The position numbers and the translations under genes were made by a program. From the NCBI GenBank assembly GCA_963818945.1, contig CAWFUA010000004.1:254976-318975 (forward strand): 64,000 nucleotides of DNA. The letters run 5' to 3'. A model generated the notes under the pieces. The model did not search any database. It saw only the letters and a program-made list of their open reading frames with translations, and was not told the origin of the DNA. The DNA is from an uncultured Acidobacteriaceae bacterium (lineage in GTDB: Bacteria; Acidobacteriota; Terriglobia; Terriglobales; Acidobacteriaceae). Below are positions 3,321 to 55,238 of this stretch, in pieces. Positions within the stretch are counted from its first letter, which is position 1; each line of letters starts with the position of its first letter.

Positions 3321-3723
3321 CGCGTGCTAATGATTCTATGGTTATTGGATACAACTAGGCAAGGAAAAGAGGTCCGGCCGGAAAGATTTTCTATGGCCAC
3401 CGCTTCGCTAACTATATTAAGAATCCATGCCTTGCGAGCGAGGCTGATGCGAGCTATGACGCCCTGGCAGGCATTCGACTTGGAATGGGGTCACGCTATA
3501 ATGACTTGGGTCTAAATCGGGAGCTTCTGAAACGGACTCAAGTCCCGCGTTCGGAGGAGTGTTTGCGCACTCTCCGGGGAACTTTGCAGCGGGTTGGAAC
3601 GTAGTTGATAATGAGATCGAGGCAGCGGGCGATCAGGTCATCGGTTCGATCTGAAAACCACCAAGCCGTACAAGAAATCGCCGGATACAACGTCTTTTGG
3701 TAACCACTGCAATAATTGACTGA

Positions 3724-5100
3724 ATGAAAACCTGGAAAAAAGTACTGATCGGTGCAGGCGCCGTTGTGGCGCTCGCAATCATCGTCGCCGTTACCGTCTA
3801 CCAGAGCCGCAAGAACCTGGTTACGGTGCAAACCGGGAAAGCCCAAAAGCAGAATCTGAGTGCGATCGTGAGTGCATCGGGCGAGATCAAACCCAAAACC
3901 TACGTTAACCTCGGCGCGAACGCTTTCGGCAAGATCGTCAAGCTGCACGTGAAGGAGGGCGACCGAGTCAAGAAGGGACAGGTTGTGGCGCAGTTGGAGA
4001 ACGTTCAGTCTTCGGCGGACGTGAATGCGACCAAGGCGTCTGTACAGGCGGCGCAGACCGATTTCGTGGCGGCGGAAGCAGGCCTTGAAACATCGCGGGC
4101 AGATTTGAATCGAGCGAAGTCGGACGCCGATCATGCCCGGCTGGATTGGGAACGGGCCCAGGGGCTCTATAAGGATGCGCTCATCGCCAAGCAGGATTAC
4201 GACACGAAAAAGGCAGCTTGGGAATCGGCCGAAGCCGGACTGGCGCAAGCCCAGGCGCGGGTGGATCAGGCCAAAGCGCAGAAGGATTCCGCGCAGAAAC
4301 ACATTTCTCAGAATCAAGCGAACCTGGCGCGGGTTTCCGACGTACTACAAAAGACGATCTATGCATCGCCTTTCGACGGCGTGATTACGAACCTGCCAGT
4401 CCGCGAAGGGGAGACGGTGGTGATGGGGATCCAGAACTCGCCGGGAAGCACGCTCATGACGATTGCAGACATGTCCGTGATTACGGCGGAAGTGAAGGTG
4501 GACGAGACCGACATCGTCAACGTGCACATTGGCCAGGCGGCCGAGGTGACAATTGATGCGATCCCGCGCAAGGTTTTTCACGGGACGGTGAGTGAGATCG
4601 GCGACAACGCCATGGTGCGTTCGACGGGGGTATCGACCTCGCAGTCCACATCGACGAGCGAGGAAGCGAAGGACTTCAAAGTGGTGGTGACGCTGACCGA
4701 CCCGCCATCGGATTTGAGGCCTGGGCTGTCGACAACCGCGAAGATTACGACCGCGACACGGAACAACGTGGTCAGTATTCCGATCCAGGCGTTGACGGTG
4801 CGCACGCAGGCGGACCTGGCACCCAAGGACGGGAAAGGGGAGGTGCAGGCTGCGGCTCCCGTGGACACGGCGAAGCAGAAGGAAGAAATTCAGGGTGTTT
4901 TCGTGATTCGTAACAAAAAGGCGGAGTTTGTTCCCGTGGAAACCGGTATCAGCGGCACAACCGACATCGAAGTAACCAAGGGCGTGCGCGAGGGTGACGA
5001 AATCATTACGGGCAGCTACAAAGTTTTGCGCACCTTGAAACCGGGAACGAATGTCAAAATAGACAATTCGGCCCCGAAAAAAGAGGAAGAAAGCAGCTAG
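3724..5100 (+). CDS. Efflux transporter periplasmic adaptor subunit (HlyD/MacA family)
   Basis: 458 aa with an N-terminal TM segment, a long alpha-helical hairpin (AQTDFVAAEAGLETSRADLNRAKSD...QAKAQKDSAQ), and barrel-sandwich/beta-barrel segments (SPFDGVITNLPVREGETV). It is followed by an ABC ATPase. Confidence 0.85.
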   Translation: MKTWKKVLIGAGAVVALAIIVAVTVYQSRKNLVTVQTGKAQKQNLSAIVSASGEIKPKTYVNLGANAFGKIVKLHVKEGDRVKKGQVVAQLENVQSSADVNATKASVQAAQTDFVAAEAGLETSRADLNRAKSDADHARLDWERAQGLYKDALIAKQDYDTKKAAWESAEAGLAQAQARVDQAKAQKDSAQKHISQNQANLARVSDVLQKTIYASPFDGVITNLPVREGETVVMGIQNSPGSTLMTIADMSVITAEVKVDETDIVNVHIGQAAEVTIDAIPRKVFHGTVSEIGDNAMVRSTGVSTSQSTSTSEEAKDFKVVVTLTDPPSDLRPGLSTTAKITTATRNNVVSIPIQALTVRTQADLAPKDGKGEVQAAAPVDTAKQKEEIQGVFVIRNKKAEFVPVETGISGTTDIEVTKGVREGDEIITGSYKVLRTLKPGTNVKIDNSAPKKEEESS

Positions 5101-5266
5101 GCTCTTGGCAGAGACAGGGCTTACCCCGTCTTTGCCGGCCTGATCTCCAGAAAGAGACGCGACAAGCCGCGTCTCTGCAAGTGGCGACTAACCGATAGCG
5201 GGTTAGCACGTCAAAGTAAGAGCGGCCAGAGGAGCGCCCGTGCCAGAGCCGGATAAGGAGAAGAAG

Positions 5267-6031
5267 ATGGCGACTGCGGAGGTACTTTCCATTGACAGGC
5301 CAACCAGCGAACGGCCTACGAATTGGGCGGCGCCAGACTCCTGCATGATTGCGACCGAGGACCTGTGGAAGACCTATGACATGGGCTCGGAGCAACAGGT
5401 GCACGCGCTGCGCGGGATCAACCTGCGCATCCAGCGCAACGAATATGTCGCCATCATGGGCCCCTCGGGATCGGGTAAATCGACGCTGATGAATCTGATT
5501 GGCTGCCTGGATTCGCCTTCCAAAGGGCAGTACTGGCTCAACGGGCAACTGGTGAGCGAGCTTGACGACGACGAACTGGCCCGCATCCGCAACAAGGAAA
5601 TTGGATTTGTGTTTCAGACGTTCAACCTGCTGGCACGGGCCACGTCGCTGCATAACGTGGAGCTGCCACTGATCTATGCGGGCGTGCCGTCGGCGGAACG
5701 CATGGAGCGCGCCAAAGCGGCATTGGCTTCCGTTGGCATGGCAGACCGCATGAACCACAAGCCAAACGAGCTTTCCGGCGGACAGCGGCAGCGTGTTGCC
5801 GTGGCGCGGGCGCTGGTCAATAAGCCTGCCATCATCCTGGCGGATGAGCCGACCGGCAACCTCGACTCGCAGACGGGCAACGAAATCATGGCGCTGTTTG
5901 ACCGCCTGCACGCGGAGGGAAATACGATCGTGCTGGTGACGCACGAGCACGATATCGCCGAATACGCGCACCGGATTATTTACATCAAGGACGGTGTGGT
6001 GGCGCGGGACGAAGTGAAAGAGGGGCGGTAG
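5267..6031 (+). CDS. ABC transporter ATP-binding protein (MacB/LolD-type)
   Basis: Walker [10 protein letters not shown], signature [15 protein letters not shown], Walker [15 protein letters not shown] at 5267 is preceded by AAGGAGAAG; the track start at 5240 is a GTG. Confidence 0.9.
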
Positions 6032-15215: not shown

Positions 15216-15232
15216 GGAAACACCTCGTGAAA

Positions 15233-15262
15233 TCAGTTCTCAGTTGCCGGTTCTCAGTTCTC
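15233..15262. repeat. Heptamer tandem repeats (CAGTTCT family) in the ftsA-ftsZ spacer
   Basis: CAGTTCTCAGTTGCCGGTTCTCAGTTCTCAG, the same unit family as at 36017-36100. Confidence 0.7.
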
Positions 15263-15297
15263 AGTAAAACCCTCACTGCTAAAACACGGGCGTTGCT

Positions 15298-23120: not shown

Positions 23121-23957
23121 TTAGAAGGGTCTGTAGATGCTGGTCACGGTGGCCACCCCGCCAGGAGGCATCGTTGGCGCGACGAACCACACGGCTACGA
23201 TCGAGCCAAGGCCCACGTACGGCAGACGGGTGTCCTCATGGTCGAACGGGGAACATGGGTTGGGCCCGGACTGGATGTTTTGCACGTAGGGAACTGAGAC
23301 GAAACCAGGCGGGAAATTGGGGGTGATCATCAGCCCTGCGGCCGTTTCCAACACTCCGTTCGCCGAGCCTAGCGTCGAGCTATAGGTGCTGTTGGCGCCG
23401 GAGAAACCCTCGGCGGCGTATCGCAACAGTGTGGCGCCGCGGCCGACACTCGAAAGGTTTTTCAGCTTCATTGTGACCTTCGCCGAACCAACGGCGCTCG
23501 CGGTAGCCGGCACATTCACGATGGTCTGCGTCAGTTGCCAGTTTCCGTCCGTGGTTGTCCGCGTTACCGTGACCGTATTGCCCTTCTGCTTCAACGTTGA
23601 GGCATTCCACAGGCCGCCGCCGGTCTCGCCGCTGTCGTAGCCCGCGTAGTCGTAATAGGCCAGGTCCGCGTCTTGGTCACAGAGTCCATAACCTTCCAAA
23701 TCCGCCGCATTCCCTGCCGGGGGGAACAATCGTATATTCCTCACGGAGAACTGGGGAATATTGCCGTTCACGGTAACGCAGAACTGCGTCGCTGTGTTGG
23801 AGGTTCCACTGGAATATGTGACCTGGCAGGCCTGACTCGCCTGGGGCGAATCTGCCTCCACCTTTTTCGTTGTGGGGTTTGGCTGGACTCGTTCTTGCGC
23901 CAGCACCACGGAAGTGAAACTTAGAATCAAACTGAACAACATGGTTTTGTTAAGCAT
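23121..23957 (-). CDS. Hypothetical secreted protein
   Basis: 278 aa with signal peptide MLNKTMLFSLILSFTSVVLAQE. I recognise no family. It shares an upstream motif with the next gene. Confidence 0.6.
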   Translation of the reverse strand: MLNKTMLFSLILSFTSVVLAQERVQPNPTTKKVEADSPQASQACQVTYSSGTSNTATQFCVTVNGNIPQFSVRNIRLFPPAGNAADLEGYGLCDQDADLAYYDYAGYDSGETGGGLWNASTLKQKGNTVTVTRTTTDGNWQLTQTIVNVPATASAVGSAKVTMKLKNLSSVGRGATLLRYAAEGFSGANSTYSSTLGSANGVLETAAGLMITPNFPPGFVSVPYVQNIQSGPNPCSPFDHEDTRLPYVGLGSIVAVWFVAPTMPPGGVATVTSIYRPF

Positions 23958-24039: not shown

Positions 24040-24074
24040 CTAACAGCGCAAAGTCGTGGCAAATCTTGTCATCG
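24040..24074 (-). promoter_or_regulatory. Conserved upstream motif (copy 1) shared by the two secreted-protein genes
   Basis: TAACAGCGCAAAGTCGTGGCAAATCTTGTCATCGG lies ~83-117 nt upstream of the start at 23957. A near-identical block sits at the same distance from the start at 25268. Confidence 0.45.
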
Positions 24075-24197: not shown

Positions 24198-25268
24198 TTA
24201 ACAGGGGTAAGTTTTGTAAAGGGTGTTGTAAAACGTGTTCATGCCAATGGATCCAGCCGATGCAACTATCCCATACTCGGTGAAGCTAATCGTGTTATCT
24301 GAAACGGTACCTGTGTGGCAAATCATATCAATGCCGTACGCGGGGCCTGAAATCTTGTTTCCCTTGACCGTCGTGCCGTCCACATTGACGACGATTCCGT
24401 AACTGGTAGGACTTTTAAATACTAGGTAGTCGTTGTTGGTTTGAATGGTGTTGCCTGAAATGGTCACATCTGTCGGATACGGCTCGCCGTCAACGAATAT
24501 AGCGTTGCCACTTTCTGGGTCGCCGCCCTCCGGCACCCTGGGGCCGGAAATAAAGTTTGTTTCTACCGTCCCAGTTACCCCATATAAGTAAATGCCGAAG
24601 CTTCCGTACGGCGCTGTCGGGAATACCTGGTTTCCGGCAATCTTTACCGTAAGGGTTGCATTCCCAAGTGTATCCAGACTACCGGCAATGATTCCCGCGG
24701 CTGAAAAGCTGTTCTCGACCGTAAAGGCCGTGCGAGCGCTAGTGGCATTCTCTGCCCAGATTCCAATTTGACAATCATTGCCGAGGCCGAAATAGCCCAC
24801 GTGGTTGAGCGTTCCGGATGCACCACTGGCGTAAAAAAATCCCACGGTCTTGAGACCGACGCAGAAAGGGGACGAGTCCGCGATGCTCTGCACGGAGACG
24901 TTTTGAATATTCACCGTGCCGGCCGTGACCCAGATGACGGGAGCGAGCGCACCTTTGAGTTCATATAGTGCGAATATTGCGCTGCTGGTCGTCTGCGGCG
25001 AACCGACAGGATAAATTTGCACGCCGTTCCCGCCATCTGCGGCCGAGCTATCCATCCCCTTAAGGGTCAAATCCTTCGAGATTATTAGCTGCTCGGAGTA
25101 AAGACCAGGACAAATCATAATGGTGGATCCCGGCGGCGCCGCGAGTACGGCTGCACCGATCGTCGGAAAGCTGCCGGATTTGCAGTTGCCGACGTAGCGG
25201 GTGCTTGCCGCTGCCGGGTAAACGCAAACAACCAGTACTGCCAACAACCAAATCGTCTTGGGTGACAT
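24198..25268 (-). CDS. Secreted right-handed parallel beta-helix (pectin-lyase-fold/NosD-like) protein
   Basis: 356 aa with a signal peptide and periodic G/N/I/V-rich ~22-25 aa turns (ISGNTIQTNN, VKGNKISGPAYGIDM, VSDNTISFTEYGI). Confidence 0.6.
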   Translation of the reverse strand: MSPKTIWLLAVLVVCVYPAAASTRYVGNCKSGSFPTIGAAVLAAPPGSTIMICPGLYSEQLIISKDLTLKGMDSSAADGGNGVQIYPVGSPQTTSSAIFALYELKGALAPVIWVTAGTVNIQNVSVQSIADSSPFCVGLKTVGFFYASGASGTLNHVGYFGLGNDCQIGIWAENATSARTAFTVENSFSAAGIIAGSLDTLGNATLTVKIAGNQVFPTAPYGSFGIYLYGVTGTVETNFISGPRVPEGGDPESGNAIFVDGEPYPTDVTISGNTIQTNNDYLVFKSPTSYGIVVNVDGTTVKGNKISGPAYGIDMICHTGTVSDNTISFTEYGIVASAGSIGMNTFYNTLYKTYPC

Positions 25269-25346: not shown

Positions 25347-25380
25347 TAACAGCGCAAAGCGACGGCAAATCTAGTCATTG
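25347..25380 (-). promoter_or_regulatory. Conserved upstream motif (copy 2)
   Basis: TAACAGCGCAAAGCGACGGCAAATCTAGTCATTG lies ~79-112 nt upstream of the start at 25268. Confidence 0.45.
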
Positions 25381-36016: not shown

Positions 36017-36100
36017 TTCGTTCTCAGTTCCCAGTTCTCAGTTCCCAGTGAAAAGCTCAGGGCCTCTGACTGAGAACTGAGAACTGGGAGCGGAGAACTG
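36017..36100. repeat. Heptamer tandem repeats (GTTCTCA/GTTCCCA) forming a long imperfect inverted repeat between ftsL and ftsI
   Basis: Left arm GTTCTCAGTTCCCAGTTCTCAGTTCCCAGTG. Right arm CTGAGAACTGAGAACTGGGAGCGGAGAACTG. Reverse-complementing the right arm matches ~24/28 positions. Confidence 0.8.
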
Positions 36101-36102
36101 AT

Positions 36103-36562
36103 TTATCTCGCGGATACGACTGCAACCGACCTTACGCTAGCCATAACCGGCGTGGCCGGATCGGCGACGGTATCCATGGGAATGACCTGGCCCGGGTCGG
36201 GCGCCTGCAGGCCCAGTTTGCGGGCCATGGCGTCAATTCGCTCCGGATCGCGCAGGGAAGCTTCTTCCAGGTGCAAAGCTTGATTCATTCCCGCCAGGCC
36301 GTCGCGCTGCGAACGCAGAGTTTCAATCTTGTATCCGTACTCGATGGCACGGAAATGCTGCAGGGCATATCCCATGACCAGCAGGAACAGGAGGCATATG
36401 GCGATACCGAACATGCGCATTTCGCGCGCCCGGCGTGGATCCTCGATCTTTACCAGGCGCGAGTTGTCGATGCGTTTGCGGAAGTAGATTTCCGGCGTGC
36501 CCAGCCAGCAGGGCTGCCGATCGGAGGAAAGCTAATTTGTGCATCGCCACGGCCGCGCTCAT
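36103..36562 (-). pseudogene. ftsL: Cell division protein FtsL, N-terminal region possibly frame-broken
   Basis: The 105 aa ORF from ATG 36420 has the TM and coiled coil (FGIAICLLFLLVMGYALQHFRAIEYGYKIETLRSQ). Upstream, the same frame stays open as GTPEIYFRKRIDNSRLVKIEDPRRAREM with no start codon (TAG at 36534-36532). An ATG at 36562 lies 3 nt after the upstream ORF's stop but in another frame. Confidence 0.7.
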
Positions 36563-37902: not shown

Positions 37903-38339
37903 TAGATGCCCAGGTCGTCGAGCGTCTTGGTGTCATCATCCGTGAAGGGCTCTTGAATCTCCTTATCGAGCGCTTCCATGTTCCGGACTTCCAGGTAGGT
38001 CAGATTGCCGAGCACTGCCACCTCCCCACGAAGCTGCGCCGACTCACGCAAAATCTGAGGGATCAGCAGGCGCCCCTGCCCGTCCATCTCTACGACCTGC
38101 CCGTAATAATTCGTGCGCGTCAAAAACTTCTTCTTCGTGGGATTGAACGTCGATAGAGAAGCCAGCCTCTGTTCGATCCGCTCCCATTCCTCGAAGGGAT
38201 ATATCTGGCCAATTACGCCATCCAGACTTGTGATGTAGAATCGCTGCGCATATTTTTCGTCGATCACGCGCTTGAATTCCGCGGGGACTTTGAGCCGTCC
38301 TTTTTCGTCCACGCGAGTTGGGTGATTTCCGCGAAACAT
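37902..38339 (-). CDS. mraZ: Transcriptional regulator MraZ
   Basis: 145 aa: MFRGNHPTRVDEKGRLKVPAEFK..., two SpoVT-AbrB-like repeats. It is the first gene of the dcw cluster. Confidence 0.95.
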   Translation of the reverse strand: MFRGNHPTRVDEKGRLKVPAEFKRVIDEKYAQRFYITSLDGVIGQIYPFEEWERIEQRLASLSTFNPTKKKFLTRTNYYGQVVEMDGQGRLLIPQILRESAQLRGEVAVLGNLTYLEVRNMEALDKEIQEPFTDDDTKTLDDLGI

Positions 38340-38526
38340 GCGATTTGCCGGTTTCTGGTCTACGTTTTAGGGCTGCTACCACAGCCAAAAGCACGACGAG
38401 GGAGGTAGAAGCGGTCACAAAACAGGTGGAATCGGGTTCATTTGGGCTCGTTTTGGGGGTGTCAGTCTCTAAAACCACTGGCGCCTCGAAAGTTAAGAAT
38501 TCCTGCCCTGAACTCTCTTGTTAATT

Positions 38527-38550
38527 CCACTTTCAACCACTTTTGACCAC
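38527..38550 (-). promoter_or_regulatory. Candidate MraZ operator: three GTGG boxes with exact 10-bp phasing
   Basis: The minus strand reads GTGGTCAAAAGTGGTTGAAAGTGGAATTAA (CCAC at 38527-30, 38537-40 and 38547-50 on +), ~190-210 nt upstream of the mraZ start. Confidence 0.45.
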
Positions 38551-38721
38551 ATCCTACGCCTAACTGGTTTATTGTCAATAGGAAAGTTCAAGGTTGAGAT
38601 TTCACTTCGGGACTCAAAGTGCGAAACGCCAAATCTTGGGGTTAACCAGAGTGGTGACCACAACTAATTGCGTTTAGGAGAATGGTTCTCCGCGCTAAGC
38701 TTCGCCTTATCTTCGCCTTAC

Positions 38722-38886
38722 GGAAATTGCGGCTGACGAGAAATCTGTGGAAAACGCGGGATGGTTCAAGTGTAATGGTTCGAACTCGCCCCTCGCGGAA
38801 GGGGTTGGCAAGGGTCCACGTATCGGACACGGACCGGCATCCGAATCAGGGGATTTTGAGTGCAACGGGGGTGTTACGTCAATCAC
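38722..38886 (+). repeat. Conserved non-coding module A, copy 1 (possible structured RNA)
   Basis: The core at 38777-38886 aligns at roughly 85% by eye with 50783-50892 (shared GTTCGAACTCG..GCGGA..GGGTTGGCAAGG...TCGGACAC..GCCGG.ATCCGAATCAGGGGAT.TTGAGTG.AA.CGGGG.TGTTACG.CAATCA). Stops differ in all frames between the copies. Confidence 0.7.
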
Positions 38887-38889
38887 TGC

Positions 38890-39378
38890 TCACGATTTCT
38901 GCGAGGAAGACACATTGCGAACGAATGAGTGCGGATTGCGTGCTTCTTCGGGATCGTCGGGCCACCCTTTACCCGATGCGTTCGCCAATTCTGAAAGCTT
39001 CTTGATGTCGGTCTGACGGATGGTATCCGTTACCTCACAACGCGATCTGTCCAAGGTTTTTGCCCCGATTACCTTCAAATAGTCCGAGAGTGCTGCGGCC
39101 TCAACGAAAACTCTTCCTGATCCAGCCCAATGGCGGTCTTTACCGTCCTGCTTTACACCCGAAACCCAAAACGATTCAGCTGTCTCCATGTCAACGTAAT
39201 TACCGCCCGATTCGCCGCGCCGCTGACCCTTCAGCTTCATCAAAGCTCGGCCATTGAAGTAGAGCGTCCGCCCAGTTTTTGATGGAGTGACAAAGCCAAT
39301 CCACGCGGGGCCGTTGTCGGAGTGGCCGCTCTTTAGCTCGATGTACCTAAGAAGCTTCACGTATCCCGAGTGTGCCAC
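38890..39378 (-). CDS. Conserved hypothetical protein
   Basis: 162 aa: MAHSGYVKLLRYIELKSGHSDNGPAWIGFVTPSKTGRTLYFNGRAL...YVDMETAESFWVSGVKQDGKDRHWAGSG. I can name no family. Confidence 0.6.
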   Translation of the reverse strand: MAHSGYVKLLRYIELKSGHSDNGPAWIGFVTPSKTGRTLYFNGRALMKLKGQRRGESGGNYVDMETAESFWVSGVKQDGKDRHWAGSGRVFVEAAALSDYLKVIGAKTLDRSRCEVTDTIRQTDIKKLSELANASGKGWPDDPEEARNPHSFVRNVSSSQKS

Positions 39379-39418
39379 ACGATCACTGCTTGATCAATTG
39401 ACGAAACCAGGCGGTACC

Positions 39419-39534
39419 ACAAGCTTGCGCCGCTGTTCGCCCTTCAGTCATTCGGCTCAAAAACCCTGTTACGGCCTGACAGTAGCGATCCCACTCGACA
39501 GCGTGGTGTGCCAGGTCAAGTCTTGGCTATCACA
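39419..39534 (+). repeat. Conserved non-coding module B, copy 1
   Basis: Aligns with 55098-55225 (shared AGGCG.TA.C.CAA.C.TGCGCCG.T.GTTC.C.CTTCAG.CATT..GCTCA.AAACC.TGTTACG.C.TGACAGTA.GCG..CCCA..C.ACAGCGTGG.GTGC.AGGTCAAGT.TTGGCTATCACA). An indel breaks any common reading frame. Confidence 0.7.
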
Positions 39535-39570
39535 GTTCAAGCAAACGGCGATCCACTTCCCGGGCTGGCG

Positions 39571-40380
39571 CTATTCCGGATCTCCCTCAAACACTCCCCG
39601 CGGGAGGCCGCCAACGATCACGCCTACGATCAAAGCAACTAGAAAGGTGTACCCGCCTTCGATCCACAGGAACTCCCGGCCAAAGTCCCAGTTACCGGCT
39701 ACCAGCAGTGCTCCTGCCACCAGCAGCCACAATGACACGGAGAGCTGGATACCACGCCAGACCGTACGAGTTCCAATCCACACCAGCAAACCGGCGACAC
39801 AGTAGGAAAACAGCAGGCAGGCGGCGACCGTCAGGAGATGGGGCATCCAGGTGCGGGCCAGGTCGTGAGCTTGCTGATCGGTGAGGCCGACGGTCTTCGC
39901 CCACGGCGAACGAAACACATACTCAGAATGCCACACTACGCCGAGAACCCAGGAAACTCCGGCCGCGATCAGCGCGGGTATGTGAGGAATACGGCTTTTG
40001 CCAAGCCGGACGGCAGCATTTGACTTGGGCTCAGGAACGGCGCGTTCGGCGTCCGGGATGCAAGCCTGATCGCACCCCGCGCGTTCGGGCCAGCGCGAGC
40101 AGGAGGCAAGGCTCACCTTGGGCTTGCCGCTCAATCCGGTGATCGCGGCACGAAACGCGTTGATGCGCACAGTAACGGGGGCGTGAGTTTCCGGACAATT
40201 CACCGTGCGTGTGCCGCGATAGTTGTTGTAGATGTGCTTGCCCCACAGAGCGGGCATGAACAGGATTAAACAGGCGGCGGTCAGGAACAGAAGTGACCAG
40301 ATGAGTAACAGCATGACCCACCTCCAGGCCCTGCGCAGAGGCGCGGGATGGAAGTCGTTCGACGGGCAGGGCCCTTGCAT
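39571..40380 (-). CDS. Membrane protein, Cys-rich N-terminal segment plus DUF1761-like C-terminal region
   Basis: 269 aa with several TM helices. WVLGVVWHSEYVFRSPWAKTVGLTDQQ resembles DUF1761 proteins; this assignment is tentative. Confidence 0.5.
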   Translation of the reverse strand: MQGPCPSNDFHPAPLRRAWRWVMLLLIWSLLFLTAACLILFMPALWGKHIYNNYRGTRTVNCPETHAPVTVRINAFRAAITGLSGKPKVSLASCSRWPERAGCDQACIPDAERAVPEPKSNAAVRLGKSRIPHIPALIAAGVSWVLGVVWHSEYVFRSPWAKTVGLTDQQAHDLARTWMPHLLTVAACLLFSYCVAGLLVWIGTRTVWRGIQLSVSLWLLVAGALLVAGNWDFGREFLWIEGGYTFLVALIVGVIVGGLPRGVFEGDPE

Positions 40381-40463
40381 TTTTACGCTATGCCGGTTCG
40401 GCTCGGCGCGCAGTGAGCGAGGTCACGGGTGTGGGTGAGGCGCGGGCGAGCGGCATTTTCCGC

Positions 40464-40991
40464 TCAGACCGCTTGCTGCTGTTTGAAGGCCTCACGAGTA
40501 ATCTGGTAAACGAGACTGTCCCACCCGCGGGCGTCCGGTCTGGTCCCGGAGCGAACTCCGCCGATTTTTTCCATGGCTCGTTGGGAGCGAAAATTCTGTG
40601 CCGCAACCAGAAAAACAACGCTGTCTACGAAACGGAATGCGTGCTCCAGCATGAGGCGCTTCATCTCGCGGTTGTAAGCGCCGCCCCAGTGCGACCTGGC
40701 TAAGAATGTCCAGCCGATTTCGATCTCGCTTCTGGCCGGGTCGTATCCATGGAATCGTGATGAGCCGATGATTCCGCCATCCCTGGAATCAATCGCTACC
40801 AATGCCCCGCCAGAGTCGATGCCCTCGCGAAAAAGTTGCTTGAAGATTTCAATCTTGTAGCGATCCATGGCGGGATGCTGCGCCCAGACAAGAGGATCCG
40901 ACGCCACGGCGTAAAGATCGTCAAAGTCCTCCTGCTGCATCGGCCGGAGGCCGAGGAGTTCGCCTATTAGAGTGGGCTGAAGGTCAAACAT
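40464..40991 (-). CDS. GNAT family N-acetyltransferase
   Basis: 175 aa: LRPMQQEDFDDLYAVASDPLVWAQHP, then a RimJ/RimL-like acetyl-CoA binding segment (VAAQNFRSQRAMEKIGG). Confidence 0.8.
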   Translation of the reverse strand: MFDLQPTLIGELLGLRPMQQEDFDDLYAVASDPLVWAQHPAMDRYKIEIFKQLFREGIDSGGALVAIDSRDGGIIGSSRFHGYDPARSEIEIGWTFLARSHWGGAYNREMKRLMLEHAFRFVDSVVFLVAAQNFRSQRAMEKIGGVRSGTRPDARGWDSLVYQITREAFKQQQAV

Positions 40992-41054
40992 AACTCAGAA
41001 TGAGCCATACCCATCGCTGTTCCTTTACCGGCCCCACAATAGCTGGTTAGGTGC

Positions 41055-42269
41055 TCAGTCCACCTGATGCTTGGCTGTGTATCCCTCTCGACAGTAGACA
41101 ATGTATTTCACGTCTTTGCCCTTCTGATCGTGAACCTTCAGCGGCCCGCCGTCGGGAGCCTGCAACTCGACCTTCAGTTTGCGGTAAGTGCCATCCAGCT
41201 TGGTGTTGGTGGGATGGTAAGCGATGGTGTATTGGTTGCGAATATCGGATGAGATCTGGTTGAAGATTTCCGGCAGTTCGCCTTGAAAACGCGGGAAATA
41301 GGCGTGTCCACCGGTGAGTTTGGCGAAAGTAGTCATCTGATTGTCGTTCTGGAGCCAGCCGACTTCGCGGGCGCCGCCGGCCATGCCGTGTGAGTCCATG
41401 TATTCGCGGATCCACCAGCCGATGCTAATGGGGTAGATAGTTATGTCTTTGGTGGACTTGACCTTCTTCAAAATCTGATCGTAAGTGAGCTTGCTGAAGG
41501 TATCCGCCCCGGAAGAAATCAGGATGATGTATTTCCTGCCTTCGATGCGGTCAATACGGTCCATGGTGTCGAACAGCGCGTCGAAGAGGTTGCGTTCGGA
41601 AAACCCAGGGAACCGCAGCATGTTGAGCGCACCAAGAACGGCGCGCTTGTCCTGCGTAAAGTCGACCAGAATCTGCGGCTTCATGTCGTAGAAGACCACC
41701 GCCACCCAGTCGTCCTTTCTCAGCCCGCTGGCGAAGGTGTAGGAAGCATTGAGGGCGTCATAGTTGTATGCACCCCACATGTTGGACGCGTACTCGATCA
41801 ACAGCACGGCAGTGATCGGAGCTTGCGTCTGATTGAAGGAAGAAATTTTCTGGGCCTGGCCATCTTCCATGATTTTGAAATTGTCCTGCTTCAGACCCGG
41901 TATGGTTTGGCCGTCTTTGGTGGTGACCAGTACATCGAGACTCACCAGGGGAACATCGACCTTGATCGAGTAGTCGGGCATGTTCTCGATCTTTTTCGGC
42001 TTTTCGGGCGCGGGTGGCGGCGGCTCTTCCTTCTTCTTGGGGATGACGTAGGGGCCGATATCGTTTTGCGGGCCACCGGCCTCGGGCGGGGCCTCCTGCT
42101 GGTTCGGATTTGCCGGCGGTGGCTGCGGCGGGGACTGCTGGGAGGTGCTTTGCGCGAGAACCAGGTAGCTCGCGCAAGCCAGCAATAAACAAGCAAAAGC
42201 CAAGGCGCTCAGACGCTTACGGGACTCTATAAGCCCCAGCCGAAGATGCACAAACAGCCTGGAAATCAT
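41055..42269 (-). CDS. VWA domain protein (VWFA-related Acidobacterial domain type)
   Basis: 404 aa with a signal/TM, a P-rich linker, VDVPLVSLDVLVTTKDGQTIPGLKQDNFKIMEDGQAQKISSF, and then a vWFA fold. Confidence 0.8.
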   Translation of the reverse strand: MISRLFVHLRLGLIESRKRLSALAFACLLLACASYLVLAQSTSQQSPPQPPPANPNQQEAPPEAGGPQNDIGPYVIPKKKEEPPPPAPEKPKKIENMPDYSIKVDVPLVSLDVLVTTKDGQTIPGLKQDNFKIMEDGQAQKISSFNQTQAPITAVLLIEYASNMWGAYNYDALNASYTFASGLRKDDWVAVVFYDMKPQILVDFTQDKRAVLGALNMLRFPGFSERNLFDALFDTMDRIDRIEGRKYIILISSGADTFSKLTYDQILKKVKSTKDITIYPISIGWWIREYMDSHGMAGGAREVGWLQNDNQMTTFAKLTGGHAYFPRFQGELPEIFNQISSDIRNQYTIAYHPTNTKLDGTYRKLKVELQAPDGGPLKVHDQKGKDVKYIVYCREGYTAKHQVD

Positions 42270-42429
42270 GGGAGGACCTCGAAACGACCTGTGCTAGTAT
42301 AGATGCAACAACTCTGCGGTTGGAATAGTTTGCAGGGTGCAAAATACCTCCTCTCCGGCAAAACCATTTTGACAGCACGCGGAGTCTAAGAAATCAGTGC
42401 GGTCATTTTCTGACCTCCGGGGACCCTCA

Positions 42430-50729: not shown

Positions 50730-50892
50730 CAGTCGTTCGAAGGACAAATCGGCTGTTCTCGGAAAACCAAAACTGATCTAAGAGTTCGAACTCGACCTTG
50801 CGGACAGGGTTGGCAAGGCTGCATGTTTCGGACACAGGCCGGTATCCGAATCAGGGGATATTGAGTGTAATCGGGGTTGTTACGCCAATCAT
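50730..50892 (+). repeat. Conserved non-coding module A, copy 2
   Basis: See copy 1. The core at 50783-50892 lies ~240 nt upstream of the histidine kinase start. Confidence 0.7.
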
Positions 50893-51131
50893 CCCTTTGA
50901 GCCACCTCCAACTCTATGGCTTTTATTGACTTGCCCCTCGCCCCCACCTAACATGTCTAGCCAGTGGCCACGCCCTCCCAGCCCGTGGGAAGAACAGTTC
51001 CCGCTCGTTGAGCCGGTCATTCCCTCTCGGGACATTCCAATCAAGGCGCATGGAGCGAGAGTTTTTCGTGTAGGACCTCGCCCCCACAACCGGGTTTGCT
51101 TTATTTAGTATTAGCTAGCAGGGATTGAAAG

Positions 51132-53348
51132 ATGGATGCGTCGGAATCTCCTCAATTCAAAATTCCTCCAACCGCTCGGCGGTACGCCTTAGCCGGGTTG
51201 GCTGCAGTAGTCGCGCTGATGCTGACCGTAATGCTTTCCCCGCAGTTTGGTACGATCTACCCTTATCACACCGTTTGCGCAGCAGTCGTCTTCTCTGCTT
51301 GGTACTGCGGTGTCGGCCCTGCCATCGTCGCCACGATAGTAAGTTTAGTGGGTGTGTGGTACTTGCTTCTTCTTCCGTTGCATTCTTTCCGTCTGCAGGA
51401 CCCCAAAAACCAAGTCACTGGGCTGGTTGGGTTTGGAGTGCTCTCCGGTTTCATCATCGTTCTGGGAGAGGTCAACCGCAGGTCGCAGGCAGCGCTGCGC
51501 TTGAGTGAGGAGCGGCTGCAGTTGGCGGCGGAGAGCTCCAATACGGGCATATGGGACCGGGATTTTCGGAGTGGCGACGTCTACCTTTCTCCTGTGTGGA
51601 AGCAGCAAATCGGTTATGCCGACCATGAAATCCGCAACGATTTAGAAGAGTGGCGAAGCCGTGTCCATCCCGACGATCTCCCGCCGGCGCTGGCTAAAAT
51701 CGAGGCTCTTCTCAAGAATCCCAAGGCGAGCTTTGAAACCGAACTCCGCTTTCGCCATAGGGACGGTTCCTACCGCTGGATCTACTCGAGGGTTAAGGCT
51801 GTGGCGCAGGAGCACGGCCGAACCACGCGGATACTGGGTTCCAACTTTGACATCACCGGGCGCAAGGAAGCCGAAGCGGCGATTCGCAATAGCGACGAAC
51901 TGTTGGAGCTTTTCATTGAGCACGCACCAGCGGCGCTGGCAATGTTCGATCGCGAAATGCGCTACATCCGGGTGAGCCGGCGCTGGCGGACCAATTATGG
52001 TCCGGAAAATCGCAGCCTGATCGGCGAGTTGCACTACGAGGTCTACCCGGTAATCCCCGAGGAGTGGAAAGAAGCCCATCGGCGCGGCCTACGCGGCGAG
52101 GTCGTGCAAGGGGATGGCCGCTTCGAACCTTCCGACGGTTCCGTTCGTTGGGTGCGCTGGGAAGTACGGCCTTGGCGTAACAGGATGGGCGAAATCGGTG
52201 GGATTGTAATCTTCTCCGAAGATATCACCGAACGCAAAGAGGCCGAGGCAGCGTTAGGCGAGAGCGAAGCCCGCCTGCGGACTGCGCTCGAGGCCTCCAT
52301 GATGGGTACCTTCGAACGTGATTTGCGAACCGGTAAGGCTCATTGGATGCCGACCACGGAGGCGATGTTCGGGTTTGAGCCAGGAACCGGCCCGGCTACC
52401 ATTGACGACTTCCTTCGCCTGATCCACCCGGAGGACCGCGACCACTTTGACCGCCTCATGGCTGAATCCACTGCGTCCGGCGTTGCAGGCGGAGAATGGC
52501 GGGTGATCTGGCCGGATGGTTCGATTCACTGGATTTACGGCCGGTGGACGGTTTTCAAAGACGATCAGGGCCAACCGTTACGCGCTATAGGCGTGGATTA
52601 CGACATCACCGCCCGCAAGCAGGCTGAAGAGTCGCTTCGCATGAAAAGCGAGCAACTGCGGGCGCTCACAATCCGCTTGCAGCATGTGCGCGAAGAAGAA
52701 CGCAAGCTGGTGGCTCGCGATCTGCATGATCAGATCGGCCAGATTCTGACGGCGGTTAAGATGGATGTCGACTGGGTAGCCAAACACCTCTCATCCCAGA
52801 ACGAGGCACAATTGTCCGGCCGGTTGGCGGCAACGCTCGATCGGCTGAGAGACGCTACGCAGTCACTGCGCAGTATCTGCACACGTTTGCGCCCTGGTGT
52901 GCTCGATGATCTGGGGCTGGCCGCAGCGATCGAGTGGCAAGTAAAGGAATTTGCCTCAATCACGGGAATCCAGTGCGACGTTTCCGTCCCACAAGAAGAC
53001 TTCCCGTTGGGCGCCGACCGGAGCACGGCGATTTTCCGCATTTTGCAGGAGGCCCTTACCAATGTTGCCCGCCATGCCCAGGCAACAATGGTTCGCGCTT
53101 CGCTTGCGCAGCAAAACGGCAATGTGGTGCTGGTCGTGCAAGATGATGGGAGAGGGATCAGCGAAAGCGAAGTTGAGTCCTCGCGGACATCGCTGGGGTT
53201 GCTCGGTATGAAAGAACGTGCAGAGGCGTGCGGCGGAGAACTCCAGATTTGGGGAGATCCTGGGAAAGGAACGACACTGGCACTACAAATTCCGCTCGCC
53301 GAATCAGAATATCAAGGGGACGATGATGCTGATCCTGCTGGCAGATGA
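51132..53348 (+). CDS. Sensor histidine kinase (DUF4118-like membrane N-terminus, multiple PAS domains, HisKA_3 + HATPase_c)
   Basis: 738 aa. There are three to four PAS modules (SGDVYLSPVWKQQIGY; FDREMRYIRVSRRW; GTFERDLRTGKAHW). H-box ARDLHDQIGQILT. N/G boxes LQEALTNVARHA and DDGRGI. Confidence 0.85.
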   Translation: MDASESPQFKIPPTARRYALAGLAAVVALMLTVMLSPQFGTIYPYHTVCAAVVFSAWYCGVGPAIVATIVSLVGVWYLLLLPLHSFRLQDPKNQVTGLVGFGVLSGFIIVLGEVNRRSQAALRLSEERLQLAAESSNTGIWDRDFRSGDVYLSPVWKQQIGYADHEIRNDLEEWRSRVHPDDLPPALAKIEALLKNPKASFETELRFRHRDGSYRWIYSRVKAVAQEHGRTTRILGSNFDITGRKEAEAAIRNSDELLELFIEHAPAALAMFDREMRYIRVSRRWRTNYGPENRSLIGELHYEVYPVIPEEWKEAHRRGLRGEVVQGDGRFEPSDGSVRWVRWEVRPWRNRMGEIGGIVIFSEDITERKEAEAALGESEARLRTALEASMMGTFERDLRTGKAHWMPTTEAMFGFEPGTGPATIDDFLRLIHPEDRDHFDRLMAESTASGVAGGEWRVIWPDGSIHWIYGRWTVFKDDQGQPLRAIGVDYDITARKQAEESLRMKSEQLRALTIRLQHVREEERKLVARDLHDQIGQILTAVKMDVDWVAKHLSSQNEAQLSGRLAATLDRLRDATQSLRSICTRLRPGVLDDLGLAAAIEWQVKEFASITGIQCDVSVPQEDFPLGADRSTAIFRILQEALTNVARHAQATMVRASLAQQNGNVVLVVQDDGRGISESEVESSRTSLGLLGMKERAEACGGELQIWGDPGKGTTLALQIPLAESEYQGDDDADPAGR

Positions 53349-53955
53349 TCACGTGGTGGTACGCCGCGGTTTACGGGACATGTTGGCAAGTGCGTTTCCA
53401 GGCGCGCAGTTCATGGAGGCAGGCACGGGAGACGAGGTTCTCGGCCATATTCGCAGACAAGTCTGCAATCTGCTCATATTAGACGTCAACATGCCGGGGC
53501 GCAGCGGCGTGGACGTGCTTAAAGAGGTCAAGAACGTTTGTCCGAACGTTCCGGTACTCATGCTGAGTGTGCAACCCGAGGATCAGTATGCTGTCCGGTG
53601 CCTGAAGGCTGGGGCCTCTGGATATTTATGCAAGGATAGTGCGGAGGAAGAACTTGTAAAGGCTGCCCGGAAAGTGATGGAGGGTGGACGATATGTCAGC
53701 ACGCAACTCAGTGAGAAGCTGGCCCGCGAAATCCAGCAGCCCTCCAACAAGGAGCCACATCAACTGCTCTCCGACCGGGAGCTTGAGGTGATGCGGATGA
53801 TTGCGTCTGGCAAATCCCTGACCGATATTGCTGAAACCCTACATATCAGCGTGAAGACCGTCGGTACTTACCGCAGCCGATGCCTGCTAAAGATGCAGAT
53901 GCAAAGCAACGCGGATCTTGTTCGCTATGTACTGGAACGCAAGCTTCTAGGGTGA
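53323..53955 (+). CDS. Response regulator, NarL/LuxR family
   Basis: MMLILLADDHVVVRRGL receiver domain (DVNMPGRSG) plus a C-terminal LuxR HTH (LSDRELEVMRMIASGKSLTDIAETLHISVKTVGTYRSR). It overlaps the kinase 3' end by 26 nt. Confidence 0.9.
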   Translation: MMLILLADDHVVVRRGLRDMLASAFPGAQFMEAGTGDEVLGHIRRQVCNLLILDVNMPGRSGVDVLKEVKNVCPNVPVLMLSVQPEDQYAVRCLKAGASGYLCKDSAEEELVKAARKVMEGGRYVSTQLSEKLAREIQQPSNKEPHQLLSDRELEVMRMIASGKSLTDIAETLHISVKTVGTYRSRCLLKMQMQSNADLVRYVLERKLLG

Positions 53956-54073
53956 GAAGCCAAACCGCCATCTGCCAGAATAACCTGACACGTCTAATAC
54001 CTTAATTCCTTCAAGACAATCAGAATTCGCCGACTGGTATCTTCCATATTTTGCTGTATGGTCTGGCTTCGGC

Positions 54074-54424
54074 TTGAATATGGAGCTGCGATTCAAGGCT
54101 CGCTCTTGCGAGCATCTAACGGAAACTGAGATGTTTGACCCAAAGCCAACCAAAGCTCTGTTCCGCTGTATATTCGCATATTCGGACGGTCAACCCGTCG
54201 AAGTCTTCGACGTACAAGAGGATCACCTGCAGTGGGACGAAACTTTGACGGCAAGTGCGAACACCGCGGTCACGCTGAAGGTAGCTGTCGCCGGGGAAGT
54301 TTCGGAACCGGATTCTCACTCGACCGAATGGGCGGAAATGCTTGCTACCGCATATGAAATGTTCGTGGATGATCCTGAAGTGGCCAATGACCACTTCCAG
54401 TGGGTGAGGCTGGAAGGTGCCTAG
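54074..54424 (+). CDS. Hypothetical acidic protein
   Basis: 116 aa ORF; an internal ATG giving MFDPKP is possible. No recognisable family. Confidence 0.4.
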   Translation: MNMELRFKARSCEHLTETEMFDPKPTKALFRCIFAYSDGQPVEVFDVQEDHLQWDETLTASANTAVTLKVAVAGEVSEPDSHSTEWAEMLATAYEMFVDDPEVANDHFQWVRLEGA

Positions 54425-54547
54425 AAACCCAGCCTGGATCGGGATCAGAAGATGCGAAAGGTCGAGCGTCGTTAACGGTACGGAGATTTGAGAGTAAACC
54501 TGAAACTGCCGTAAACAAGTAGAAGAGACGGGCAGTCCTCCCCCAGG

Positions 54548-54600
54548 GATTCGGACTCCGATATAGTGACCGAGAGTTATGCGTTATCGGAGTCCGAATC
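54548..54600 (+). other. Perfect 16-bp-stem hairpin in the long cspA leader
   Basis: GATTCGGACTCCGATA (54548-54563), a 21-nt loop, then TATCGGAGTCCGAATC (54585-54600). It lies ~200 nt upstream of the cspA ATG. Confidence 0.7.
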
Positions 54601-54800
54601 TCCATCTGCAACCCCTTGTTTACAAGCACATTATCTAAAATACCGCACGGCATGCTGTCGGGTTGGCTGCGTCGCAACAATGCGTTGTGACGTACGGGCT
54701 TGACGGCGTTTTCCTACAGCGTGACAATCACAAGACAATTTTGCGATCACGTCCACGAACTGTGCTTCTTGAGGCGAATCAGCAAAAGGGAGAGGAAAAA

Positions 54801-55016
54801 ATGCAGATCGAACGTCTCAAAGGCACGGTCAAGTGGTTCAATAACGCGAAAGGGTACGGCTTCCTAGGACGCGACAATGGACCGGATGTGTTCATCCACT
54901 TTAGCGCCATTGCCAGCGAAGGTTACAAAAGCCTGCAAGAAGGCGACCAAGTTGAATTCGAGATCGTCCAGGGTCAGAAAGGGCCGCAAGCGGCCAATGT
55001 TGGCCGGGTCTCCTGA
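54801..55016 (+). CDS. cspA: Cold-shock protein (CspA family)
   Basis: 71 aa: [37 protein letters not shown] with RNP1/RNP2 motifs. GGGAGAGG Shine-Dalgarno upstream of the ATG at 54801. Confidence 0.93.
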
Positions 55017-55097
55017 TTCACAGCCTGCAGTTCCCAGTGTCAGAGACCTGTCACCAAAGTTGCTTCACCGGTTGACTCCGACCGGCCTTCTCATGGA

Positions 55098-55225
55098 AGG
55101 CGTTAGCGCAAACGTGCGCCGTTTGTTCTCGCTTCAGCCATTACGCTCAGAAAACCTGTTACGACGTGACAGTAAGCGGACCCATCCAACAGCGTGGCGT
55201 GCAAGGTCAAGTTTTGGCTATCACA
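55098..55225 (+). repeat. Conserved non-coding module B, copy 2
   Basis: See copy 1. It begins ~80 nt after the cspA stop. Confidence 0.7.
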
Positions 55226-55238
55226 TCAGTCTCAAGGG

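Follow-up and report, generated by a model that had tools for sequence, protein, structure and literature searches.

Modules A and B, two conserved non-coding sequences that each occur twice in the 64-kb stretch of acidobacterial DNA analysed here (the window), are very probably the left and right termini of DNA transposons that belong to a single cargo-carrying, non-autonomous family of the mobile-insertion-cassette type. An element of this family consists of a left end, one or more ordinary genes in either orientation, and a right end; it contains no transposase. Members are polymorphic for insertion, are flanked by target duplications, show a preference for a particular target, have inverted ends, join A to B and carry diverse cargo. 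An earlier note on the same DNA had suggested that A and B might be the diverged inverted ends of a non-autonomous mobile element. That suggestion is now strongly supported, because there is an empty site for one of the elements, the flanks carry 7-bp duplications, the ends are inverted repeats, and the units between them differ in cargo.

Sensitive BLASTN of positions 38300-39900 against the whole window identified one further copy of each module. A1 (38773-38885) matches A2 (50779-50891) with 83.3% identity over 114 nt (E 1.9e-24), and B1 (39409-39534) matches B2 (55098-55225) with 80.5% identity over 128 nt (E 2.6e-25). There are no additional copies of A or B in the window, all remaining matches having E values of 2 or more. 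All four modules are on the plus strand, with A positioned 5' of B at both loci, which confirms the earlier reading that each has a single paralogue and that order and orientation are shared. The interiors also differ as had been claimed: one locus encloses a single minus-strand ORF of 162 aa, the other four plus-strand genes. The modules are thus real, although the outer bounds first assigned to them were slightly too narrow; the limits of the complete elements are given in Table 1. Judging by the source names of the nearest RsmH homologues, the host is of the Terriglobales/Acidobacteriia type.

Table 1. Features of the two elements in the window (positions are those of the 64-kb stretch)
Feature	Position	Strand	Description
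Element 1	38771..39534	+	764 bp: A1, one cargo gene, B1; perfect 7/7 target duplication
Element 1 termini		+	5'-TGTAATGG...CTATCACA-3', read from the window
Target duplication GTTCAAG, left copy	38764..38770	.	Identical to 39535-39541
Target duplication GTTCAAG, right copy	39535..39541	.	Right flank of element 1
A1, left end	38771..38895	+	nhmmer family A profile positions 1-124, E 1.4e-29
A1 terminal inverted repeat, ~27 bp	38771-38797	+	
A1 conserved subterminal block	38850-38886	+	GGGGATTTTGAGTGCAACGGGGGTGTTACGTCAATCA
Element 1 cargo, 162-aa protein (ORF162)	38890..39378	-	
B1, right end	39399..39534	+	nhmmer B profile positions 2-141, E 3e-31
Element 2	50777..55225	+	4449 bp: A2, four cargo genes, B2
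A2, left end	50777..50904	+	nhmmer A profile positions 3-127, E 4.3e-34
PAS-domain histidine kinase, 738 aa, cargo	51132..53348	+	Pfam PAS_3, PAS_4, HisKA_3, HATPase_c
LuxR-type response regulator, cargo	53218..53955	+	Pfam Response_reg, GerE; ORF counted from the first possible start, the real start being probably later
116-aa ORF, cargo	54074..54424	+	Without family match
Cold-shock-domain protein, cargo	54663..55016	+	Pfam CSD 2.1e-28, residues 53-114 of the maximal ORF
B2, right end	55098..55225	+	nhmmer B profile positions 12-141, E 6e-29

The first element occupies the interval between a DUF1761 gene and mraZ, approximately 430 bp upstream of the latter. It immediately precedes mraZ and rsmH, with which the dcw cell-division cluster opens on the minus strand. 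We aligned the rsmH loci of close relatives with the window. The closest relative is represented by four contigs (L038-L041), in which RsmH is 91% identical. Window positions 39939-39536 align with positions 3139-3541 of L038, and window positions 38770-36910 with positions 3536-5404. In all four contigs window position 39536 abuts 38770, the flanks being contiguous with a 6-bp overlap at one copy of the target. The segment between these flanks, which corresponds exactly to A1, ORF162 and B1, is therefore missing from the relative as a single block; the comparison of relatives for presence or absence, which the earlier note had proposed, thus finds the unit of A, cargo and B cleanly absent. 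The empty site in L038 contains one copy of the target, ATTCAAG (read on the plus strand of the window), where the window has GTTCAAG twice. An empty site together with a duplicated GTTCAAG is the signature of transposon insertion with a 7-bp target-site duplication, and element 1 is a clean lineage-specific insertion. In principle, an indel flanked by a 7-bp repeat could also be produced by a microhomology deletion in the relative, but this is made unlikely by the many independent target duplications and by the target logo described below.

The cargo of element 1 belongs to a protein family that is conserved in Acidobacteria (1624 homologues, one of them, from Candidatus Korobacter (Koribacter) versatilis, with 80% identity). 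Searches for its function in Pfam, NCBIfam, PADLOC and PDB sequences gave no match. The homologues examined occur in varied contexts, including Korobacter-type contigs and two long MAG contigs, and none has A or B beside it, which rules out the idea that A and B always bracket homologues of ORF162. Nor does ORF162 appear as cargo at any other locus among the metagenome matches listed.

The second element has a gene for a trypsin-like peptidase on one side and a 299-aa gene on the other; both genes lie on the minus strand. An exact look-up of the window peptidase found no record of it. Homologues of the 299-aa neighbor are few and distant, and through them we reached a more distant relative (L164) in which the peptidase orthologue (78% identical) is next to the counterpart of the 299-aa gene, with 233 bp between them. 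In the window 4722 bp lie between the same two genes, a distance made up of the 4449 bp of the element and another 273 bp, which shows that element 2, too, is an insertion. No inverted repeat in the region ranks above the one formed by its ends (50772-50801 with 55201-55230; 30 nt, 73% complementary). The left tip is mutated (TCTAAGAG) and a target duplication is not present, the flanks being AAACTGA on the left and TCAGTCT on the right. The altered tip and the lack of a clean duplication suggest that element 2 is probably old or immobilised.

Given that each module has just two copies in the window, in the same order and orientation, one may ask whether the two loci are relics of a within-genome segmental duplication, the interior of which was later replaced. 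We assign this next to no probability. A2 is 87-88% identical to two metagenome copies (L120 and L077) and B2 is 86.7% identical to a third (L068), whereas identity to A1 and B1 is 83% and 80%, which argues for two independent arrivals. Moreover, there is no similarity outside the modules, the same ends are found at no fewer than 120 loci with flanks that differ wherever they can be read, and element 1 has a precise empty site. The two elements are independent members of one transposon family, neither having been copied from the other.

The extent of the family is evident from metagenome data. A scan with the B tip GGTCAAGTNTTGGCTATCACA returned at least 120 loci, and the terminal 21-mer of B1 is likewise present at at least 120 metagenome loci. 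Profiles were built from the recovered ends and run with nhmmer over the recovered loci (617 kb). Among the matches listed, 41 B ends have at least 2 kb of upstream sequence: a complete A is present upstream on the same strand in 18 of these, and the inner part of A alone in another nine. Where less than 1 kb of upstream sequence is available, A is absent in 45 of 46 cases (again among the matches listed), as would be expected where assemblies break at a repeat. Matches to A in any other arrangement number five across the 617 kb, among the matches listed, and at least one of these is a cross-match between A and the reverse complement of B. The linkage of A to B, which the earlier note had drawn from two loci, thus holds at many metagenome loci, where A precedes B on the same strand and the cargo differs. 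Distances from A to B range from 513 to 4862 bp among the matches listed, the three shortest or oddest resting on partial matches to A. A gene-free version of the element was not seen among the matches listed, the smallest of which measures 513 bp.

Contigs from soil and peat metagenomes, which carry no taxonomy, contain the family in abundance; the window and its close relatives are acidobacterial. A scan of a genome collection, using a pattern derived from the two A copies of the window, returned just two chance matches, one in an alphaproteobacterial and one in a flavobacterial MAG. This pattern was too specific to the window, because the family consensus differs at TCCGAATCAGGGG. Viral and plasmid collections searched with A and B patterns, by scans and by BLAST, gave chance matches or none, and nothing relevant emerged from literature searches on either the end sequences or elements of this kind in Acidobacteria.

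Flanking sequences provide a record of how the elements inserted. Across 26 A-B pairs among the matches listed, the 7-bp flanks are perfect duplications in nine, agree at six of seven positions in six, and at five of seven in four. The perfect duplications are CATAAAG, GTTTATG, CCTCAGG, GATTACG, CATAAAC, GTTTAGA, CGTCAGT, CCTAAGG and, in the window, GTTCAAG. In 105 distinct right flanks (among the matches listed) position 3 is T in 92 and position 5 is A in 80; position 2 disfavours G, and position 6 disfavours C. These preferences define a symmetric target, NHTNADN, centred on the duplicated 7 bp. Symmetry around a staggered cut is the product that would be expected of a transposase dimer acting on both strands.

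The ends themselves are inverted with respect to one another. Element tips read 5'-TGT...ACA-3' and form imperfect inverted repeats of approximately 27 bp, with the four ends in the window aligning tip to tip: the left end reads TGTAATAGYTYGRACTCGACCTTGC and the right end, when reverse-complemented, reads TGTGATAGCCAARACTTGACCTKGC. Comparison of the consensus A with the reverse-complemented short-class B end gave a score of 23, compared with -13.5 +/- 5.1 for 1000 shuffles (z ~7). At the level of the family, A is an inverted and diverged copy of B over some 110-145 bp, the similarity extending from one end of the module to the other. The inverted core that the earlier note had seen in common between A and B holds at this level; within the window the similarity is marginal (z ~1.2 for pair 1 and ~3.2 for pair 2). 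That core, CTCAAAA.CCC.., is part of a subterminal block, GGGGATTTTGAG[TC]G[TC]AATCGCGAT.TTACGCCAAC, which is almost invariant across 25 independent copies of A (A1 aligned with 24 others). In B1 the inner part begins near ATTGACGAAACCAGG and the outer 70 nt finish ...GGTCAAGTCTTGGCTATCACA.

Sequences that are intergenic, conserved and hairpin-bearing, and in which some G-T pairs fit the plus strand only, might alternatively be structured non-coding RNAs or UTR elements (riboswitch, sRNA) of the neighboring genes. The earlier note had indeed suggested a plus-strand structured RNA in A. The data lend this no support, and we consider an RNA identity for A and B highly improbable. Rfam gave no match at gathering thresholds over the whole window and nothing relevant at E values up to 10 or 1 at both loci; Acido-1 and Acido-Lenti-1, two families that the note had singled out, were without a match even at permissive thresholds. 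No tRNA or tmRNA genes were found. RNAalifold applied to the 25 independent copies of A returned -3.4 kcal/mol with a covariation term of 0.02. For three hairpins defined from the family alignment, 82.2% of cells pair, compared with 82.0% in column shuffles, and the covariation score was equalled by 92 of 500 shuffles; one of the three corresponds to a helix proposed in the note. Single-sequence folds of A and B on both strands are inconsistent between copies and mostly shuffle-like (z from +1.6 to -2.6). Finally, the neighboring genes are unrelated between loci and face either way, and the modules come and go together, in a single unit flanked by target duplications. The sequence does contain genuine palindromes at the hairpins, and nothing points to selection for RNA pairing. 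The pattern of conservation is the one that would be expected of DNA bound by protein.

We determined what the ends carry. Among the matches listed, the interiors contain 119 ORFs of at least 150 aa, which form 106 clusters. Pfam families represented include TPR proteins, kinases, sigma and anti-sigma factors, regulators, secreted beta-helix and beta-propeller proteins, MsrA and cytochrome b561, among others. Cargo is encoded by one strand or the other, and a single ORF takes up almost the whole interior of a short element. The ends, in short, travel with ever-changing, otherwise ordinary genes.

No recurrent transposase was detected by Pfam in the cargo of the window, in the 106 cargo representatives or in the long interiors (L046, L051, L132, L150, L157 and others). 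Transposase genes met among the matches listed are two of the IS110 family, one of IS66 and one of IS1380 type, at four loci. The IS110, IS66 and IS1380 families presumably generate no duplication, or duplications of 8 bp or of 4-5 bp, and have ends that differ from those of the elements described here; neither duplications nor ends fit, and we take the four genes to be secondary insertions unrelated to the family. At one of the four loci (L067) the IS1380-type gene lies approximately 60 bp from the start of the homology to the outer part of B, and the inner part of B is missing. An autonomous copy or a cognate transposase was found neither in the window, nor among the metagenome matches listed, nor in the plasmid or viral collections. 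Accordingly, mobilisation in trans by an enzyme of the DDE type, for which some of the conserved blocks would serve as binding sites, is what we infer.

Longer members of the family have a more complex organisation. They contain internal partial ends, in which the inner ~50 nt of B are followed directly by the inner ~50 nt of A. The resulting junction is an imperfect palindrome of approximately 80-100 bp (...CAGGCG.TTACACTCAAAACCCC-loop-GGGGATTTTGAGTGTAATCGCGAT...), and such junctions separate successive cassettes: there are three in L100, four in L132 and two in L097. The first of these members is flanked by a perfect CATAAAC duplication and holds at least eight ORFs. The architecture is therefore that of an outer end, a repeated unit of inner end, cargo and inner end, and a second outer end.

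If the palindromic inner halves were recombination sites, then the cassettes might be moved by a site-specific recombinase in the manner of integrons. The presence of these palindromes between single-ORF cassettes in all three arrays is in accord with this, as are the extreme diversity of the cargo and the lone ORF that nearly fills short elements, as in integron cassettes. Nonetheless, we think it quite improbable that a recombinase accounts for the family. The sites differ at each locus and are marked by variable 7-bp duplications, which, with the symmetric logo, indicate staggered-cut transposition and not a fixed att site; no integrase or recombinase family was found among the larger window ORFs scanned or the 25 Pfam families listed for the cargo; and the cargo faces both directions. 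Transposition is thus our preferred explanation for movement of the whole unit, and exchange by a recombinase could be a second layer within the transposon. A related idea, which we raise as an unlikely but reasonable speculation, is that the family constitutes a transposon-borne platform for gene capture: host genes would be gained, inverted, lost and arrayed at the inner-half junctions, and an unlinked transposase would act on the outer 30-75 bp to move the array as a whole. If true, the family would be a cassette system that resembles an integron but lacks the integron integrase, and the presence of a different ordinary gene in almost every copy would be easier to understand.

For transposition itself we propose the following mechanism. 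A transposase encoded elsewhere would bind the ~27-bp terminal repeat, and probably also the conserved subterminal block, and would cleave at the 5'-TGT...ACA-3' tips. The tips would then be joined to a target cut with a 7-bp stagger centred on NHTNADN, which would give rise to the 7-bp duplication. A CA-3' end is typical of the retroviral-integrase DDE superfamily.

A scan of A also revealed a candidate outward promoter, TTGACG-18-CAAAAT. The case for outward promotion by the A end is weak, given that in internal junctions this motif points straight into a hairpin.

The existence of such a family has several implications. Ordinary chromosomal genes, encoding regulators, stress proteins, secreted and membrane proteins and many uncharacterised proteins, are moved by a family that carries no enzyme of its own. 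Standard annotation seeks transposase genes and therefore misses these elements. The family accounts for lineage-specific genes even in stretches as strongly conserved as the one that precedes mraZ, and its repeat breaks metagenome assemblies. Genes that have moved recently can be recognised by a simple sequence marker, the two ends. Two questions become testable: which enzyme is behind the rare 7-bp symmetric insertions, and by what route so many genes have come to lie between the same ends.

Like integron cassettes, the units are packed, mostly single-ORF and functionally diverse, with imperfect palindromes between them; unlike integrons, the cargo is oriented either way, and whole units occupy variable sites with duplications and terminal inverted repeats. 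No IntI, attI or recombinase family was found among the larger window ORFs scanned or the 25 cargo Pfam families listed. Given that neither integrase nor attI was found in this material, and given the variable insertion sites with their duplications, we conclude that these elements are not integrons. Like MITEs, the family is non-autonomous and present in many copies, has inverted ends and target duplications, and interrupts contigs at the repeat; unlike MITEs, its elements carry genes and reach 4.9 kb. We rejected identity with MITEs because members of 513-4862 bp are gene-carrying, with a real ORF nearly filling the short ones.

Mobile insertion cassettes (MICs) are listed by ISfinder under the name 'transporter IS'. 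The term MIC has been applied to the qnrD and qnrS2 cassettes and to Tn3-family MICs of Xanthomonas (PMC3913671, PMC5444012, PMC4337579). As in MICs, two IS-like inverted ends surround one or more passenger genes, there is no internal transposase, the target is duplicated, and movement is presumed to occur in trans. The features of MICs that we observed are terminal inverted repeats, target duplication, passengers without a transposase and insertion polymorphism. There are also differences. No parent IS with matching ends is known for this family; the ends are far longer (~110-145 bp) and the duplication is of 7 bp at the symmetric NHTNADN; the cargo is different in essentially every copy (106 clusters for 119 ORFs, among the matches listed); and some members are multi-cassette arrays with palindromic junctions.

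The ends themselves invite comparison with larger transposons. Tn552 has inverted ends of ~116 bp and generates duplications of 6-7 bp; Tn7 and Mu generate duplications of 5 bp. The family resembles Tn552, Tn7, Mu and IS21, transposons of the retroviral-integrase DDE superfamily, in having tips of the form 5'-TG...CA-3' and long, complex ends in which more than one block is conserved. It differs from all four in that no transposase, ATPase or resolvase gene is carried inside its elements; neither of the window elements, and none of the complete family members examined, contains an rve-type DDE transposase with its ATPase partner. Tn552 may be the nearest architectural analogue, which we offer as a lead.

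Long members of the family contain the inner half of B followed directly by the inner half of A, an arrangement that we refer to as an internal junction. The two halves together form an imperfect palindrome of ~80–100 bp, which separates successive cassettes; at one such metagenome locus, L100, three internal junctions are accompanied by a perfect 7-bp duplication. The transposase genes found inside or beside family members at L067, L072 and L150 are unrelated to the A/B family. At L067 and L072 the gene occupies the expected place of the inner B end, a position that may reflect targeting of the palindromic inner-B region.

In element 2 (the member with four cargo genes) the inverted repeat runs 5 bp past the canonical tips, as ACTGA on the left and TCAGT on the right. 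Its left tip reads TCTAAGAG, compared to the expected TGTAATAG. Instead of duplicating each other directly, the two 7-bp flanks come close to being reverse complements.

Within A1, the left end of element 1, the conserved subterminal block includes a sigma-70-like motif, TTGACG-18-CAAAAT, that points outward from the element, toward mraZ. The ATTTTGAG block, which matches this motif, is nearly invariant across the family. In internal junctions the same motif leads straight into a hairpin, and for this reason a promoter role is doubtful.

Coordinates of features in the window and at metagenome loci
Feature	Location	Strand	Remark
Transposase gene	L067:578-2079		IS1380-type
Transposase gene	L072:534-1767		IS110-family
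Transposase gene	L150:4483-6198		IS66-family
Internal junctions	L100:144-5005		
Internal junctions	L132:2136-8479		
Internal junctions	L097:3057-5750		
Internal junctions	L054:3795-3889		
Element 2, left extension	50772-50776		
Element 2, right extension	55226-55230		
Sigma-70-like motif	38853-38882	minus	
ORF162	38890-39378	minus	
ORF162 homologue and neighbors	L008:5032-7835		
Region upstream of mraZ	38754-42300		
A-like relic	L042:6790-6860		profile positions 8-53, E 1e-4
32-nt direct repeat	24041-24072; 25347-25378		
Accessory gene	23121-23957	minus	no family
Accessory gene	24198-25268	minus	weak NosD/beta-helix
Repeat palindrome	36020-36104		
Related palindrome copy	15230-15265		

ORF162, the cargo of element 1, has 1624 homologues, and searches of Pfam, NCBIfam, PADLOC and PDB give no match for the family. 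Its neighborhood differs in every genome examined; on contig L008 a homologue has a PIN/Phd toxin-antitoxin pair on one side and a CAP12-type TIR-domain gene on the other.

Comparison to the rsmH loci of close relatives (L038-L043) marks the region upstream of mraZ as especially prone to change. The relatives fall into three groups by gene content here: one has DJ-1/PfpI together with a small ORF, another has genes for sulfate assimilation, and the third has a 445-aa ORF. Homology with the window picks up again only at ~38754-38770. One relative (L042) carries a decayed and shortened A-like relic, flanked by the VWA-domain gene and a 445-aa ORF, near which no B end is detectable.

Other repeats are present in the window. 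Short GTTCTCAGT-like repeats make up a palindrome just downstream of the 796-aa gene, and a related copy occurs at a distance of 20.8 kb. Two accessory genes that adjoin ftsW inside the dcw cluster each have, ~80 nt upstream, one copy of a 32-nt direct repeat (84% identity). This repeat is unrelated to A or B and may be a common promoter or operator of the two genes.
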